Of a stretch of DNA of 12,698 nucleotides, positions 253 through 8,310 are shown piece after piece. Source of the DNA: a virus; the UHGV virus genome UHGV-0271890, one strand, 5' to 3'. The notes beneath the pieces were generated by a model. The model worked only from the letters and a program-made list of their open reading frames with translations. It searched no databases and was not told the DNA's origin. A program made the position numbers and the translations under genes. Each line of letters starts with the position of its first letter. The stretch's first letter is position 1.

Positions 253-328
253 TGGTACTGGTAGGTGGAATCGAACCACCGATGTTCCCTTATCAGGGGA
301 GTGTTATAACCTTCTTAACTATACCAGC
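253..328 (-). tRNA. tRNA-Ile (anticodon GAU)
   Basis: Minus-strand cloverleaf folded by hand: acceptor GCTGGTA/TACCAGT (G1:U72 wobble), D-stem GTTA/TAAC, anticodon loop CTGATAA, T-arm GGTGG-TTCGATT-CCACC, discriminator A, CCA encoded (plus TGG 253-255). Confidence 0.85.
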
Positions 329-329
329 T

Positions 330-406
330 TGGAGGTTCAGATGGGAATCGAACCAACATTCATAGGGTTTATGAGACCCTTGCATTACCTTATCTGCGAC
401 TGAACC
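330..406 (-). tRNA. tRNA-Met (anticodon CAU; elongator vs initiator vs Ile2-lysidine not resolvable)
   Basis: Acceptor GGTTCAG/CTGAACC perfect; anticodon stem AGGGT/ACCCT with loop CTCATAA; T-loop TTCGATT with one internal T-stem mismatch; discriminator U; CCA encoded. Confidence 0.8.
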
Positions 407-411
407 ATTTT

Positions 412-487
412 TGGTAGAAGTGGAGGGATTCGAACCCATCGCCTGTCAGATTAAAAGTCTGCCGCATCACCATTCTGCTACACTTCC
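412..487 (-). tRNA. tRNA-Lys (anticodon UUU), non-canonical T-stem
   Basis: Acceptor GGAAGTG/CACTTCT (G1:U72), D-loop AATGGTGA, anticodon loop CTTTTAA on stem GCAGA/TCTGA, T-loop TTCGAAT flanked by only 3 GC pairs (ATGGG/CCCTC has two mismatches); CCA encoded. Confidence 0.65.
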
Positions 488-491
488 ATTA

Positions 492-635
492 AATTATCTT
501 TGTAGATAAGCTACCCAGACTTGCTTAAGGTCTGTAGCGATGTGCCTTTTTGGGTTTAAATCTAGAATTTACCCTTTCACCCTTTGTGGTCGCATACTCA
601 CAGGTAAGCTTAATAACTTATCTACAAAGATAATT
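492..635. repeat. 19-bp perfect inverted repeat enclosing 106 bp
   Basis: AATTATCTTTGTAGATAAG at 492-510 is the exact reverse complement of CTTATCTACAAAGATAATT at 617-635; each arm is also a local hairpin (TTATCT-NNNN-AGATAA). Confidence 0.8.
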
Positions 636-636
636 A

Positions 637-770
637 CCAGACCGTTGTTTATCATCTTAAGTGCTACCATTACACCAACTCGACATCTGCCGAGTGAAGG
701 AATCGAACCTTCGCCTTTTCTTTACCGAGAAATAGATTGTTTAAGTTTTGCTGTAAACGGTCTTCTGTAA
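637..770 (-). ncRNA. Candidate Y-RNA-like / permuted tRNA-mimic RNA
   Basis: Minus-strand order is T-arm GAAGG-TTCGATT-CCTTC (plus 696-712), then a closed 7-bp acceptor-like hairpin ACTCGGC-AGAT-GTCGAGT (plus 678-695), then a D-arm-like GTGT-AATGGTA-GCAC (plus 661-675). All sit inside an 8-bp long-range stem (plus 639-646 with 756-763). No canonical cloverleaf is possible. Confidence 0.45.
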
Positions 771-780
771 ATTTGTTGAG

Positions 781-856
781 CCAGACCAAGTTTTAAATTT
801 TTCAAAATTAAATTGGTTTGAAATTTTAAGTATCTTGCTGTATTTGGTCTTCTGCT
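781..856 (-). ncRNA. Stem-bounded structured element, family member
   Basis: Conserved CCAGACC...GGTCTTCTG flanks with 7-bp closing stem AGACCAA/TTGGTCT (783-789 with 844-850); conserved sense-strand 5' motif CAGAAGACC-NNNT-ACAGCAA; internal AT-rich hairpin. Confidence 0.4.
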
Positions 857-915
857 CCTTTAAAGGATACTCGTAAGAACCCTTTAAGGGAGGGGCTAAA
901 TAGCCCTCTCAAAAT

Positions 916-993
916 TGGCGGTTACGAAGGGATTTGAACCCTCATCATCTCCCGTGACAGGGGAGTATTTTAACCAAATTAAACTACATAACC
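916..993 (-). tRNA. tRNA-Asp (anticodon GUC)
   Basis: Acceptor GGTTATG/CGTAACC, D-stem GTTT/AAAT, anticodon stem CTCCC/GGGAG with loop CTGTCAC, T-arm GAGGG-TTCAAAT-CCCTT, discriminator G, CCA encoded. Confidence 0.88.
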
Positions 994-998
994 TTTAT

Positions 999-1086
999 TG
1001 GTGTGCCGTGTAGGAGTCGAACCTACCGAGTCTCAATGACAAGGGATTTACAGTCCCCACCGCTACCATCTACGGGATAACGACAC
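999..1086 (-). tRNA. tRNA-Tyr (anticodon GUA), class II with long variable arm
   Basis: Acceptor GTGTCGT/ACGGCAC (one U:G), anticodon stem GGGGA/TCCCT with loop CTGTAAA, ~15-nt variable arm with GTC/GAC stem, T-arm GTAGG-TTCGACT-CCTAC, CCA encoded; 5' end and D-arm register uncertain. Confidence 0.75.
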
Positions 1087-1095
1087 ATTTAAATT

Positions 1096-1172
1096 TGGCG
1101 GTTAGTCAGGGATTCGAACCCTGTGCCATTCGCTTAACAGGCGACCGCACATACCTTATGTGCTTCCTAACC
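1096..1172 (-). tRNA. tRNA-Asn (anticodon GUU)
   Basis: D-arm GCAC-ATAAGGTAT-GTGC perfect, anticodon loop CTGTTAA, T-arm CAGGG-TTCGAAT-CCCTG, acceptor GGTTAGG/ACTAACC with 7:66 G:A mismatch, discriminator G, CCA encoded. Confidence 0.78.
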
Positions 1173-1183
1173 TTAATACATTG

Positions 1184-1250
1184 CCAGACCGTGTTTTTTT
1201 TTTTTCTTTTATCCGCAAAAAGTATTTTGTTGCTGAATACGGTCTTCTGC
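1184..1250 (-). ncRNA. Stem-bounded structured element, family member
   Basis: Closing stem AGACCGT/ACGGTCT (1186-1192 with 1239-1245) covaries with the other copies; contains a 13-nt homopolymer T-run (plus) and an internal hairpin. Confidence 0.4.
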
Positions 1251-1255
1251 AAATT

Positions 1256-1332
1256 TGGAGGCGGGTGCAGGAGTCGAACCTGCCGATACCATGCTAATGA
1301 GACATGTGAGACGCCCTTTCTCTATACCCGCA
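1256..1332 (-). tRNA. tRNA with CAU anticodon (second Met-type; possibly Ile2/lysidine or initiator)
   Basis: T-arm GCAGG-TTCGACT-CCTGC, acceptor 3' strand ACCCGCC pairing TGCGGGT (1:72 mismatch), anticodon stem CATGT/GCATG with loop CTCATTA (U37 unusual), CCA encoded; 5' boundary uncertain. Confidence 0.6.
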
Positions 1333-1343
1333 ATTCTTAATGA

Positions 1344-1417
1344 CCAGACCAAATCTCTTCTTTGTCCGATTTACCTTCAGATGAATAAGATTAAGTTTGC
1401 TGTAATTGGTCTTCTGT
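1344..1417 (-). ncRNA. Stem-bounded structured element, family member
   Basis: Closing stem AGACCAA/TTGGTCT (1346-1352 with 1406-1412); same conserved flanks; abuts the CCA end of tRNA-Glu. Confidence 0.4.
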
Positions 1418-1423
1418 CAAAAC

Positions 1424-1501
1424 TGGCGTTCCAGAAGGGATTTGAACCCTCAGATATCCACTTTGAAAGAGTGGTGACTTTACCATTTTGTCTACTGGAA
1501 C
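1424..1501 (-). tRNA. tRNA-Glu (anticodon UUC)
   Basis: Acceptor GTTCCAG/CTGGAAC perfect, anticodon stem CCACT/AGTGG perfect with loop CTTTCAA, T-arm GAGGG-TTCAAAT-CCCTT, discriminator G, CCA encoded. Confidence 0.88.
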
Positions 1502-1508
1502 ATTAATT

Positions 1509-1585
1509 TGGTCTCTGTTGGAGGACTTGAACCTCCGGCCTTACCGCCCCAAACGGAACGCTCTACCAAGCTGAGCTAAACAGAG
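1509..1585 (-). tRNA. tRNA-Pro (anticodon UGG)
   Basis: Acceptor CTCTGTT/AACAGAG perfect (C1:G72), D-arm GCTC-AGCTTGGTA-GAGC, anticodon loop TTTGGGG, T-arm GGAGG-TTCAAGT-CCTCC, CCA encoded. Confidence 0.85.
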
Positions 1586-1611: not shown

Positions 1612-1641
1612 ACTTTAACATTATTTTTTAGTGATTGTCAA
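1612..1641 (-). promoter_or_regulatory. Candidate promoter for the tRNA array
   Basis: On the minus strand: TTGACA (plus 1636-1641), 18-nt spacer, TAAAGT (plus 1612-1617), about 25 nt upstream of the tRNA-Pro 5' end. Confidence 0.45.
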
Positions 1642-1710
1642 GAACTTTTTTAAAATATTTTTCAGTATCTTAGAAAAGCTCTCGTTTCGTTTCTATGTAG
1701 AACATATTAA

Positions 1711-1745
1711 AGGGTATCAAACACATTGTCAATACCCTTTTTGAA
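1711..1745. terminator. Hairpin terminator just downstream of the vWA gene stop
   Basis: AAGGGTAT...ATACCCTT 8-bp stem, followed on the plus strand by TTTTTGAAACTTTTT and preceded by an A-run on the minus strand; direction ambiguous, possibly bidirectional. Confidence 0.45.
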
Positions 1746-1750
1746 ACTTT

Positions 1751-3166
1751 TTACCAGATGTAACGGTCAATCATTACTGCTTTGAGCATTACGCTGATTG
1801 GGTCAAACTTCTCACCACCAAGCAGAGCTTTTAAAGTGGCTGGAGAGAAACCAGATACCATTGCTACACCGTTATCCTTAACAGATACTTCGCAAGTACC
1901 ACTACGGTTTGCTAAGTACCAGAATACCAGTTGTGGCATTTCGTATCCAGCTTTTTTGTACTTACTACGAATTGCTTCAAAGTTTGTACGACCGTTAGCT
2001 CCATCAACCTGATTGAACTCCATATCGGAGAAGATGATAAGCTTACTTGGCATATCTTTCTGAGTCAAGTTGTTTCTTTTACCTGTCTCAAGAATACGGT
2101 CAAAAGCAGCTTGTAAGTTAGTTGAGCCATATTCAACGTGTCGCATCACCTGACGATGACGGTTTCGTAAATCACCACTCAGTTCGATGAAGTGAGGGTT
2201 TGTTGAATAAACCATCAACTCATTCTTAAAGCAACCTGTATTACGTTCTGCTACATACAATGCAAGTGAAACACCAATATCAAGAGCAGTAATTGAACCA
2301 AAATTCACCCAAGACATTGAGCTTGAAACATCAGACATACACAAGATGTTTTCACCCTCTGCCATCCAGTTTGGTAGTGCTTTCCACTGCTCATTAGCAA
2401 CATCTGCATTACCATGCTTAACAGATTTAATTACATCGTATGGGTAAACAGCACCAGCATTAATCTTAGTCTCACCCTTTGATAAGGACTCGATGTAAGC
2501 TTTGTAGCGTTCTCCATCTTTACGGTTAAACAGTTTTTGGTAACGTGCAGCAGCAAGTGAAGGAATCTTACTGTAGTCAATCTTACCAAACTCATTAGCA
2601 GAGATTTTTTGCTCAACTGTATCAGATAGTGCAGACAACAGTGTGCGGTACTCTTTCTCACTCAAGTTGGCAAACTTGCAGAAACGTTTTACAAACTGCT
2701 TATGACGTGGTTTGACTCGTGGTAACCACTTAGCTGCCAAACCTGCTGTTGCAGGGTCTAGTAATGCTGCTTCTAAATGTTTGAAGGCATCTGTCTCGAA
2801 ACGAGTACCTACGAAGATTTTGAAGTCATCAAAACGACCAAGTTCTGCAATCTTATCCATAATGCGAAGAACCTGTGTAGGCTCTAAAACTTTATCTTCA
2901 ATTGCTTGAAGCAAAACAGTTCTGAAGGCTTTACGCTCACCCATACCTTCTCGTACATCTCGCATGTGAAGCAAAATACGAACTGCAACATCAACATCCT
3001 CACGCAAAGCTTTGTAGAACAGGTCTGGTAAGATTTCTACATTGCTACGGCTCGAACCAGCAGATTTGTAAAAGTCTACAAGAGCAGACATTGATGAAGT
3101 ATGGTTTACAGCACCATTTTCAGTTCGACCTGCATGAAGGTGCGCATGTTTAAATAATTCGCTCAT
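1751..3166 (-). CDS. vWA (MIDAS) domain protein, 471 aa; possibly Ro60/TROVE-like or DUF2828-like
   Basis: Long ORF with RBS; MIDAS motif D-x-S-x-S (ILCMSDVSSSMS, ~nt 2300-2340) followed by predicted alpha/beta segments; N-terminal ~270 aa likely helical. Family assignment is from memory. Confidence 0.8.
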   Translation of the reverse strand: MSELFKHAHLHAGRTENGAVNHTSSMSALVDFYKSAGSSRSNVEILPDLFYKALREDVDVAVRILLHMRDVREGMGERKAFRTVLLQAIEDKVLEPTQVLRIMDKIAELGRFDDFKIFVGTRFETDAFKHLEAALLDPATAGLAAKWLPRVKPRHKQFVKRFCKFANLSEKEYRTLLSALSDTVEQKISANEFGKIDYSKIPSLAAARYQKLFNRKDGERYKAYIESLSKGETKINAGAVYPYDVIKSVKHGNADVANEQWKALPNWMAEGENILCMSDVSSSMSWVNFGSITALDIGVSLALYVAERNTGCFKNELMVYSTNPHFIELSGDLRNRHRQVMRHVEYGSTNLQAAFDRILETGKRNNLTQKDMPSKLIIFSDMEFNQVDGANGRTNFEAIRSKYKKAGYEMPQLVFWYLANRSGTCEVSVKDNGVAMVSGFSPATLKALLGGEKFDPISVMLKAVMIDRYIW

Positions 3167-3248: not shown

Positions 3249-3620
3249 TTATTTTTTGAGAGTCGCTACAGCAGAGAACGTTGGTTTGTTATCTGTCTGA
3301 GATTGACCACCACTATCAGGGGTCTTCTTAGTGTCTGCTGCAAGTGCTTTCATCTCACCTGCTGAGTGAGTAAAGATAGTTTTACCGACCTCAATCATAC
3401 TCTTGATGGTTACGTCATCTGTGTTTAACCCGAACTCTGCAAGCTTAGCCGCGTCCCTTGTAACAATCGCCTCAAACAACTTTGCAGCAAACTCAGCAGA
3501 ATTATCAATGGTCAGTTGAGCTTTTACAAGTGAGCTTTTGTTACGAGAGCCTTTTGGTCTTCCAGATGGGTTTCCAGACTGGCCTTTTTTAAACTGGCCT
3601 TTGTTTGTTCTGTTTTTCAT
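3249..3620 (-). CDS. GNPxGRPKG-motif basic protein, 123 aa (DUF5681-like, probable nucleic-acid binding)
   Basis: ORF with RBS AAGAGG 7 nt upstream of ATG; N-terminal KKGQSGNPSGRPKGSRNK motif recalled from phage proteins; upstream of and co-oriented with the vWA gene. Confidence 0.75.
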   Translation of the reverse strand: MKNRTNKGQFKKGQSGNPSGRPKGSRNKSSLVKAQLTIDNSAEFAAKLFEAIVTRDAAKLAEFGLNTDDVTIKSMIEVGKTIFTHSAGEMKALAADTKKTPDSGGQSQTDNKPTFSAVATLKK

Positions 3621-7680: not shown

Positions 7681-7973
7681 TGAGTAAAGTACAGGTTGTT
7701 TTCCCTATTTGTGACTTCTCACTAGAGCGTGAACTTGACCTGTACGAAGAAATTACTGACGAAATTATCTGGTCTGTTGTAGAAGAGGCTATCAAGAAAC
7801 TGTATGGTGGCCTCTTAAACCCATCAAGTAAGAAGTTAAGCACTAAGCAAGTAGCTGACCCATATGTTTCATATGATGCCTACAACAAACCTTTTGAGAA
7901 TACCTGCTTTGACCTTATGGTAGGTAATAACAAAGTCAACTATTTCTTCGTCAGAGAGTTTAACGATGAGTAA
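7680..7973 (+). CDS. Hypothetical protein, 97 aa
   Basis: TAATG overlap with the upstream gene. Confidence 0.65.
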   Translation: MSKVQVVFPICDFSLERELDLYEEITDEIIWSVVEEAIKKLYGGLLNPSSKKLSTKQVADPYVSYDAYNKPFENTCFDLMVGNNKVNYFFVREFNDE

Positions 7974-8310
7974 GCTCCATGTCACAGTGTACAAAAACTT
8001 CTCAGATATCAAAGAGTCTTTAACAAATAAGCTTGACTTACAACGTAAAAGACTCTTTTTAATGTACGACATAGACAACTACAACCATCCTAAAGAGTTT
8101 AACTACAAAGATGGTACAAAGGTTGTTGAGTTTGAAGATTCTGTAACGGTATATGTAAAATATGACTTACCAGCAAAGTACATAGGGGTGTTAGAGTATT
8201 ATATATTCAAACATACTGGTATGCGTGGTGAATCTGTCAAGATATCTTCTATAGAAGTTTTTGAGAAACCTAACACACAACTTAAAAAGTATTTAATGAG
8301 GAAACTGTAA
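7966..8310 (+). CDS. Hypothetical protein, 114 aa
   Basis: ORF with GAGAG RBS; small overlap with the upstream gene. Confidence 0.7.
   Translation: MSKLHVTVYKNFSDIKESLTNKLDLQRKRLFLMYDIDNYNHPKEFNYKDGTKVVEFEDSVTVYVKYDLPAKYIGVLEYYIFKHTGMRGESVKISSIEVFEKPNTQLKKYLMRKL

Follow-up and report, generated by a model that had tools for sequence, protein, structure and literature searches.

Structured RNA elements in a Felixounavirus tRNA operon as probable Y-RNA-like partners of a Ro60-like phage protein

The window analyzed here is a stretch of 12,698 nucleotides (nt) of the virus genome UHGV-0271890, which is 96-99% identical to many Felixounavirus genomes, i.e., Felix O1-like myoviruses of Escherichia and Salmonella. 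It contains a minus-strand operon of nine tRNA genes and, just upstream of it, the gene for a protein of 471 amino acids (aa) that is predicted to resemble Ro60. Four structured elements are interleaved with the tRNA genes, about 340-1100 nt downstream of this gene and on the same strand. We propose, with a probability of roughly 70%, that they encode small non-coding RNAs, about 75 nt long in three cases and about 137 nt in the fourth, that are Y-RNA-like partners of the Ro60-like protein encoded upstream. The features concerned are the following:

1751..3166, minus strand: gene for the 471-aa Ro60-like protein, just upstream of the tRNA operon
253..1585, minus strand: tRNA operon carrying the elements (nine tRNA genes, ARAGORN and Rfam), in the order Pro, Glu, copy 1, Met, copy 2, Asn, Tyr, Asp, copy 3, copy 4, a 150-nt RNA, Lys, Met, Ile
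1341..1419, minus strand: copy 1, short form of about 79 nt, between tRNA-Glu and tRNA-Met; outer helix UGAC/GUCA, AGA bulge, inner helix AGACCAA/UUGGUCU, box UACAGCAA, bulged G1345
1181..1252, minus strand: copy 2, short form of about 72 nt, between tRNA-Met and tRNA-Asn; outer helix UUGC/GCAA, inner helix AGACCGU/ACGGUCU, box UUCAGCAA, A-rich interior, bulged G1185
778..857, minus strand: copy 3, short form of about 80 nt, with a syntenic copy in Mooglevirus Sf14; outer helix GAGC/GCUC, inner helix AGACCAA/UUGGUCU, box UACAGCAA, bulged G782
634..770, minus strand: copy 4, long form of about 137 nt, with the terminal module of copies 1-3 and an inserted tRNA-like domain; outer helix UUAC/GUAA, inner helix AGACCGUU/AACGGUCU, box UACAGCAA, bulged G638

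Folding gives all four copies a common layout, in which a 4-bp outer helix is followed by an asymmetric internal loop (AGA on the 5' side versus a single G on the 3' side) and then by the inner helix. The latter consists of AGACC plus two to three variable pairs (AGACCNN/NNGGUCU), followed by one spacer base and the box UWCAGCAA, which is single-stranded and lies 10 nt from the helix base, while the interior is variable and unrelated between copies. Exact CAGAAGACC sites number four in the window, all on the minus strand (759-767, 846-854, 1241-1249, and 1408-1416). When one mismatch is allowed, 11 sites are found against 2.66 expected, a count reached in 0 of 200 shuffles. The heptamer GGTCTGG occurs six times against 0.83 expected, and four of its sites (637, 781, 1184, and 1344) pair with the CAGAAGACC sites.

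A first-pass annotation of this DNA had reported conserved flanks shared by at least four spacers, bases inside them that stay complementary, and covariation pointing to selection on structure. The paired sites bear out the shared flanks, and the complementary bases are confirmed (GUU/AAC, AA/UU, GU/AC, AA/UU). Selection on structure holds at the RNA level, where the 4-nt outer helix covaries too: its sequence is different in each copy with complementarity kept (UGAC/GUCA, UUGC/GCAA, GAGC/GCUC, UUAC/GUAA), and UUUGC...GCAA of copy 2 in the window corresponds to UUUAC...GUAA in phage finno and others, a change from G-C to A-U on both sides. Other statements stood in part. The range given, 781-1417, holds copies 1-3, but the fourth copy (634-770) falls outside it. 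A closing helix was described and the inner helix does pair, but CAGAAGACC is not one continuous helix strand, since the 3-nt AGA bulge and the single bulged G separate the outer from the inner helix. A start right after a tRNA CCA end applies to copies 1 and 2 (6-7 nt), whereas copy 3 lies 62 nt past tRNA-Asp and copy 4 follows copy 3. Likewise, the sequence UACAGCAA, attributed to each copy, is present in copies 1, 3, and 4, while copy 2 has UUCAGCAA.

Relatives of the protein were taken on 80 viral contigs, and on 75 of these the relative is only 38-48% identical to the window protein; the loci compared in this analysis carry L-numbers. In L007, the nearest non-Felix relative, a repeated 8-mer (TTCAGCAA) in the tRNA cluster led to four elements of the same layout with unrelated helix sequences, and the distance from the helix base to CAGCAA is a constant 10 nt across loci. 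In an anchor test, every CAGCAA was considered, and the 7 nt starting 10 nt upstream had to pair perfectly, with no more than one G-U, with a segment that lies within 260 nt and is followed by a G. The viral anchor set comprised 76 loci (the 75 non-Felix viral contigs and the window), or 156 loci together with the genome contigs. In the viral set, 91 of 399 boxes on the gene strand pass versus 3 of 311 on the opposite strand, and shuffled downstream sequence gives 2-11. At least one match is present in 55 of the 76 loci. The matches are found on either side of the gene, 49 of the 91 at a distance of up to 300 nt and 73 of up to 1 kb. The test was replicated on 80 bacterial and archaeal genome contigs, where 88 of 320 boxes pass on the gene strand versus 8 of 213 on the opposite strand, with 7-9 in gene-strand shuffles. 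A relaxed descriptor also finds the closing-pair variants UGG...CCA-G, AAG...CUU-G, UAG...CUA-G, and GGG...CCC-G. The linkage of the RNA family to the protein gene is thus strand-specific and extends over very distant phages, namely those of Proteobacteria, Firmicutes, Actinobacteria, Chloroflexi, and others. In all, the elements accompany the gene on hundreds of contigs from phages and bacteria, a context missed by the first-pass annotation.

The pairing is supported by compensatory changes in a gapless alignment of 76 distinct elements, in which all seven inner-helix pairs vary on both sides, with three to four pair types at most positions, and the closing pair switches among A-U, U-A, and G-C. 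This alignment is interior-trimmed and of equal length, as MAFFT on untrimmed short elements misplaced the 3' strand. The trimmed set was picked for complementarity and its 100% pairing is therefore by construction, so that the unbiased statistic is the strand and shuffle contrast of the anchor test. A covariance model built on the trimmed set (R1) recovered short copies only, because long interiors are heavily penalized, and the descriptor was used instead. In short elements of L015 (7409-7470), L016, L018, L023, and L029, AGCAA is repeated two or three times after the box (e.g., ACAGCAAACAAUACACAAGCAAUUACAAAUUAAGCAA), a sequence pattern that suggests multiple single-strand binding sites.

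The linkage does not depend on tRNA genes. Roughly half the viral loci are devoid of tRNA genes within 6 kb, yet carry an element 26-34 nt past the stop codon, and many loci with an element at this distance contain no tRNA in 13 kb. Tandem arrays of two to four copies, with elaborate interiors, are found at most loci. In Listeria phage A511, three copies in tandem lie directly upstream of the homologous gene. Mycobacteriophage LilDestine, in which the gene is annotated as 'Ro-like RNA binding protein', carries three tandem copies directly downstream of it, and the middle copy includes a tRNA-like T arm. Within the Felixounavirus/Mooglevirus group, 251 GenBank phage records contain copies 3 and 4, and the same number of records contain a protein at least 80% identical; in Shigella phage Sf14 (Mooglevirus) all four copies are found at syntenic places. 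On the other hand, Erwinia phage SunLIRen, of the same subfamily, has the syntenic tRNA cluster, but the protein homologue was not found genome-wide (best tblastn E 0.78) and no element was found in the cluster (L083 2740-4160). SunLIRen is thus a natural control, in which protein gene and elements are absent together. Its cluster holds other long spacers, e.g., L083 3700-3880.

Of 157 loci, 22 have an element ahead of the Ro-like gene whose bulged G is only 11-27 nt away from the start codon, and the Shine-Dalgarno sequence occupies the space between the two. Minimal 33-nt hairpins (7-bp stem, CAGCAA in the loop) stand right before the Shine-Dalgarno sequence in L008 (5954-5987), L014 (1764-1796), L017 (2859-2891), L031, L013, L040, and others. 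By analogy with the layout usual for a protein that binds its own leader, this position suggests translational autoregulation. Besides, in L044 a segment right after a long element (7924-7978, plus strand) gives a near-threshold Rfam match to NsiR1 (37.7 versus 39 bits) and has the appearance of a strong intrinsic terminator at the end of the RNA gene pair.

The 471-aa open reading frame (ORF) carries the Pfam domains DUF2828 and DUF7788 (PF11443/PF25043) and belongs to PHROG 850 ('RNA-binding protein'). An AlphaFold (AF2) model computed on an alignment of 44 homologues reached a pLDDT of 88.9 and a pTM of 0.88; a model computed with no alignment (pLDDT 44.9) was not used. In a Foldseek search against the PDB, the best 11 matches were all Ro60, Rsr, or phage Ro60 structures over the full length (E 7e-8 to 1.5e-6, TM 0.45-0.66), including Xenopus and human Ro60, Deinococcus Rsr, and the Ro60 of Thermus phage phiLo, and isolated vWA domains ranked next. 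The MIDAS motif D279-x-S281-x-S283 is intact, and the DxSxS residues are invariant in the family. According to this model, the protein folds as Ro60, with a TROVE-like helical-repeat ring and a vWA domain. Sequence searches of the PDB gave no significant Ro60 match, and a profile search placed Ro60 at E 1.1. The same structural assignment was given to the orthologue gp130 in a preprint on the Felixounavirus Bas63, which also reported that gp130 counters the Ppl defence.

The elements share several properties with the Y RNAs, i.e., YrlA and YrlB (Chen et al. 2014, PMC4201824) and Yrl1 and Yrl2 of Thermus phage phiLo (PMC12135203). As in these, they adjoin a gene for a Ro60-fold protein on the same strand, their two ends pair into a bulged stem, a conserved motif is found close to the 5' end, the interior is variable, and short forms stand in tandem with long paralogues. 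Like YrlA, the long form has a tRNA-like domain, and the order of its T, D, variable, and acceptor-like arms is the same. Gene proximity and strand, the bulged terminal stem with covariation over 76 sequences, and the tRNA-like domain are the characters of the Y class that were found. In contrast to Y RNAs, the partner protein is of the DUF2828 type and not Pfam TROVE, the motif is UWCAGCAA at a fixed 10-nt spacing together with a 3' bulged G instead of GNCGAAN0-1G or CGAA, and the elements of the window are embedded in a tRNA operon. The best related copy, from a mycobacteriophage, scores 21.7 bits with the YrlA model, below the gathering threshold of 69. At gathering thresholds, Rfam finds only tRNAs in the window and 11 related loci, and no description of this RNA family was found in the literature on DUF2828, PF11443, the box sequence, or 'Ro-like'.

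The first-pass annotation had also noticed a tRNA-like module in one of the copies, which the minimum free energy (MFE) fold of copy 4 bears out with the following parts:

656..745, minus strand: tRNA-like domain of copy 4 (MFE fold)
745-741/660-656, minus strand: anticodon-stem-like helix (MFE fold)
732-717, minus strand: variable-arm hairpin (MFE fold)
712-696, minus strand: T arm, loop UUCGAUU (MFE fold)
695-678, minus strand: acceptor-like 7-bp hairpin, closed by the 4-nt loop AGAU and followed by a UG connector (MFE fold)
675-661, minus strand: D arm, loop AAUGGUA, a GG loop (MFE fold)

In this predicted fold, the domain corresponds to a tRNA whose anticodon end is open and whose acceptor end is closed, as has been described for bacterial YrlA. 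ARAGORN makes no tRNA call for copy 4, and the Rfam tRNA model fits the T arm only (14.9 bits) and not a cloverleaf. The same module with other helix sequences is present in Sf14, L007, L035, and mycobacteriophage L084. At least two other interior modules recur in long family members, one with GGACGAUGUAAAAGGUUCGAAC (L013 3973-4185, L017 628-834, L019 686-805) and one with CCUUUCUGGAGGGGAAAGCAAAAACUCGCC (L008 5276-5371, L009 3133-3233, L014 149-281, L017 1265-1374, L031 5734-5829).

The tRNA operon of phage T4 also encodes stable non-tRNA RNAs, species 1 and 2 (rnaC/rnaD), which are small and structured and of unknown function. They are co-transcribed with the phage tRNAs and freed by tRNA-processing enzymes. 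Their likeness to the elements is by description only, and T4 is not among the phages with a DUF2828 protein in the matches listed.

Canonical phage Ro60 binds Y-like RNAs encoded beside its gene, and the Bas63 preprint guessed that some of the downstream 'tRNA genes' are Y RNAs, none of which was identified. Considering that the RNA family stands beside a Ro60-like gene across loci, the elements are probably the partner RNAs of that protein, and of the three options offered by the first-pass annotation (processed small RNAs, processing signals, or miniature inverted-repeat elements) the first is the likeliest. The elements would be expressed as discrete RNAs, being co-transcribed with the tRNAs and released by the enzymes that cut tRNA 5' and 3' ends, i.e., RNase P and 3'-end processing enzymes. 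The closed, bulged terminal double helix would shield them from exonucleases. The Ro60-like protein may recognize a module consisting of the inner-helix base (A-U, G-C, R-Y), the 3' bulged G, and the UWCAGCAA box 10 nt from the base, and the variable interior might serve as effector or adaptor; the tRNA mimic of copy 4 could recruit or distract tRNA-recognizing enzymes, as in bacterial YrlA. The resulting ribonucleoprotein might act in RNA surveillance or in counter-defence during infection.

A further resemblance concerns the Class I RNAs of Dictyostelium, an abundant class discovered in 2004. The only Rfam family resembled by the elements is Dicty_Class_I_RNA (RF01414), with full-length matches of 13-31 bits that do not reach the threshold of 41.5; in the window copy 2 scores 28.0 bits (E 0.0017), copy 1 19.7, and a third copy 13, and four unrelated phage loci score 25-31. 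Like the phage elements, Class I RNAs are about 60 nt long with a short covarying stem joining the ends (Kjellin et al. 2021, PMC7919456), and curated D. discoideum sequences follow the pattern GUUGAC-CUUA-CAGCAA...GUCAAC-UG. An unpaired (C)CUUACAGCAA directly follows the 5' strand, with the phage box at the equivalent place, the interior is A/C-rich and variable in both, and both have a 3' C-U-G with a G-C pair at the helix base. In columns 42-44 of our alignment A3, C is found in 96%, U in 80%, and G, which the search required, in 100%, and the G10-C42 pair in 73 of 76. Both families have rare long members with structured inserts. DdR-65, DdR-66, and DdR-67 of D. discoideum (supplement of PMC7919456) are 86-141 nt long with structured inserts between box and 3' strand, which parallels the short/long split in the phages. 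The resemblance has its limits. As compared with the 11-nt Class I motif CCUUACAGCAA, the phages have the stem followed by (N)UWCAGCAA, with the box one nucleotide closer to the helix base and the first positions of the motif not conserved. Besides, the genes for Class I RNAs are eukaryotic and have a DUSE promoter some 60 nt upstream, whereas the window has a phage operon with sigma-70-like promoters.

A model trained on D. discoideum only (R2) placed 19 of its 38 weak matches on phage elements, which make up 0.65% of the search space; its scores are weak and dominated by the GUUGAC stem, and it was used for this enrichment count only. The best R2 matches, which the descriptor missed, are L033 4740-4808 (plus strand), with a GUUGAC stem and the variant box CUUAUAGUAA, and L027 6431-6488 (plus strand), with GGUUC-CUUACAGCAA...GGAACC-A, which indicates that the family is wider than the strict CAGCAA/+G rule. 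DUF2828 proteins occur in eukaryotes. No DUF2828 signature peptide was found in the incomplete proteome contained in the supplements of PMC7919456, and Class I RNAs have been reported as unique to Dictyostelia and of unknown mechanism (Kjellin et al., PMC7919456). As a tentative and rather doubtful possibility, the phage CAGCAA-box RNAs and the dictyostelid Class I RNAs may form one ancient class of Y-RNA-like partners of DUF2828-type Ro60 paralogues. If true, Class I RNAs would have a predicted protein partner and be related to RNAs of hundreds of phages that infect many bacterial phyla, and a second Ro/Y ribonucleoprotein lineage, not seen before, would be defined. The likeness offers a testable hypothesis for a 20-year-old orphan RNA class.

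Several observations weigh against the reading of the elements as Y-RNA-like partners of the Ro60-like protein. Genomic linkage shows a shared function, not necessarily direct binding. The protein lies outside Pfam TROVE, with an identity to Ro60 of only 11-16%. The elements lack the Ro-binding motifs GNCGAAN0-1G (bacterial) and GGUCCGA (metazoan), and YrlA (RF02553) gives no match in the window at E<=10. The leader of the window's own Ro60-like gene is without an element. The exact outer-helix geometry of the window is not general in the family, with 48% paired versus about 40% in slid controls. The known binder of Class I RNA is the RRM protein Rnp1A, which is not Ro-like. Finally, single-copy folding is only modestly better than in shuffles (z of -1.4 to -2.5), so that the case for the elements is comparative and not thermodynamic.

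The strand bias, the linkage that does not depend on tRNAs, and the shared absence in SunLIRen all fit the alternative explanations less well. The elements might be decoys or sponges for a host factor, such as an RNA-binding protein, a ribonuclease, or a tRNA-targeting defence nuclease, independent of the Ro60-like protein and merely sharing its operon or regulon. The tRNA mimicry of copy 4 would fit this, as would the tie between phage tRNA clusters and evasion of tRNA-cleaving defences (Bas63 preprint) and the binding of the look-alike Class I RNA to an RRM protein, for which a sponge role has been proposed in the literature. We nevertheless consider it unlikely, as the linkage is to the protein gene and not to tRNAs or any host lineage, over several phyla, which makes a common host target improbable, and elements abutting the ribosome-binding site of the protein gene are hard to explain unless the protein binds them. 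The same positions before the start codon are what would be expected if the elements were only translational or transcriptional operators of the Ro60-like gene, i.e., feedback sites and not trans-acting RNAs. This is highly improbable for the window, where all copies lie downstream of the gene, past two promoters and two tRNAs, with nothing comparable in the gene's leader, and it would not account for the elaborate tandem copies of most loci.

The location between tRNAs, with two elements beginning 6-7 nt after a CCA end, would be compatible with cis signals in the tRNA precursor (RNase III, RNase E, or RNase P guidance, or transcript stability) that have no function once released. Such processing signals, the second option of the first-pass annotation, are not supported, since many loci combine the same module and the same protein gene but are free of tRNA genes within 6 kb. 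An element is missing from the majority of tRNA junctions here and in related clusters, and SunLIRen's syntenic cluster has none at all. Besides, a conserved single-stranded 8-nt box and a tRNA-like insert are unexpected for cleavage hairpins; this explanation is therefore very unlikely. Repeated units with complementary ends, one copy with tRNA arms, and an annotated tRNA pseudogene in some records might also recall miniature inverted-repeat mobile elements or relics of degenerate tRNA genes, which we regard as barely credible. Miniature elements would have terminal inverted repeats, target-site duplications, either orientation, and variable sites. The copies instead show one orientation (91 versus 3 and 88 versus 8), positions syntenic between genera, interiors unrelated between copies, a single-stranded box, and ends that form a helix with a fixed asymmetric bulge, in which compensatory changes keep the pairing. 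The closed acceptor end argues that the tRNA-like part of copy 4 is not a decayed tRNA gene.

The conserved Ro60/Y-RNA particles serve in RNA surveillance, and their roles in bacteria and viruses have only begun to be worked out. The family described here seems to supply the RNA component so far missing from a second Ro/Y ribonucleoprotein, of the DUF2828 type, with a distinct, recognizable RNA module. It occurs in hundreds of phages, including Felixounavirus, KVP40-like vibriophages, Aeh1, phages of Campylobacter, Listeria (A511), Staphylococcus, Enterococcus, and Bacillus, and mycobacteriophages. Its RNAs are unannotated in essentially all deposited genomes, and no Rfam family covers them. 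For Bas63, the elements are concrete Y-RNA candidates with exact coordinates and a defined motif. They also explain 'pseudo-tRNA' and spurious small-ORF annotations in these clusters.

The region around the elements contains some further features:

1612..1732, minus strand: two sigma-70-like promoters ahead of tRNA-Pro (1732-1704, TTGACA-17-TAATAT; 1641-1612, TTGACA-18-TAAAGT), consensus match only
488..635, minus strand: 150-nt RNA with a closing stem of about 24 bp, directly after copy 4 (folding z = -7.2)
3249-3620, minus strand: 123-aa ORF (DUF5681/PHROG 4114), directly upstream of the Ro60-like gene

The promoters are presumed, from their sequence, to be the start of a transcription unit of tRNAs and small RNAs; the count of sigma-70-like promoters in the region is not above the shuffled expectation. 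Self-cleaving ribozymes, retron- or CRISPR-type repeats, and terminators were considered for the elements and rejected, with no Rfam matches and no terminator-like sites inside 253..1585 on the transcribed (minus) strand. The DUF5681 ORF is kept at the same place in Felixounavirus and Mooglevirus.

The 150-nt RNA is conserved in Felixounavirus and is present in Mooglevirus Sf14 too, with compensatory changes. One of its hairpins, CAGAC-CUUAAGCAA-GUCUG-G, has a loop similar to the family box. The 150-nt RNA is a doubtful candidate for a fifth, aberrant member of the family, or alternatively may be an RNase III substrate. Between tRNA-Asp and copy 3 (858-915, minus strand) there is a pair of adjoining hairpins (GAGGGCUAUUUAGCCCCUC and CCUUUAAAGG...CCUUUAAAGG) with a joint fold z of -2.55. 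The region of copies 3 and 4 (630-860) is unannotated in nearly all of the 251 GenBank phage records, and the labels where present are a spurious 'hypothetical protein', 'tRNA-Thr', 'tRNA-OTHER', or 'tRNA pseudogene'. A 76-aa ORF at 540-770 on the plus strand is probably an annotation artefact.

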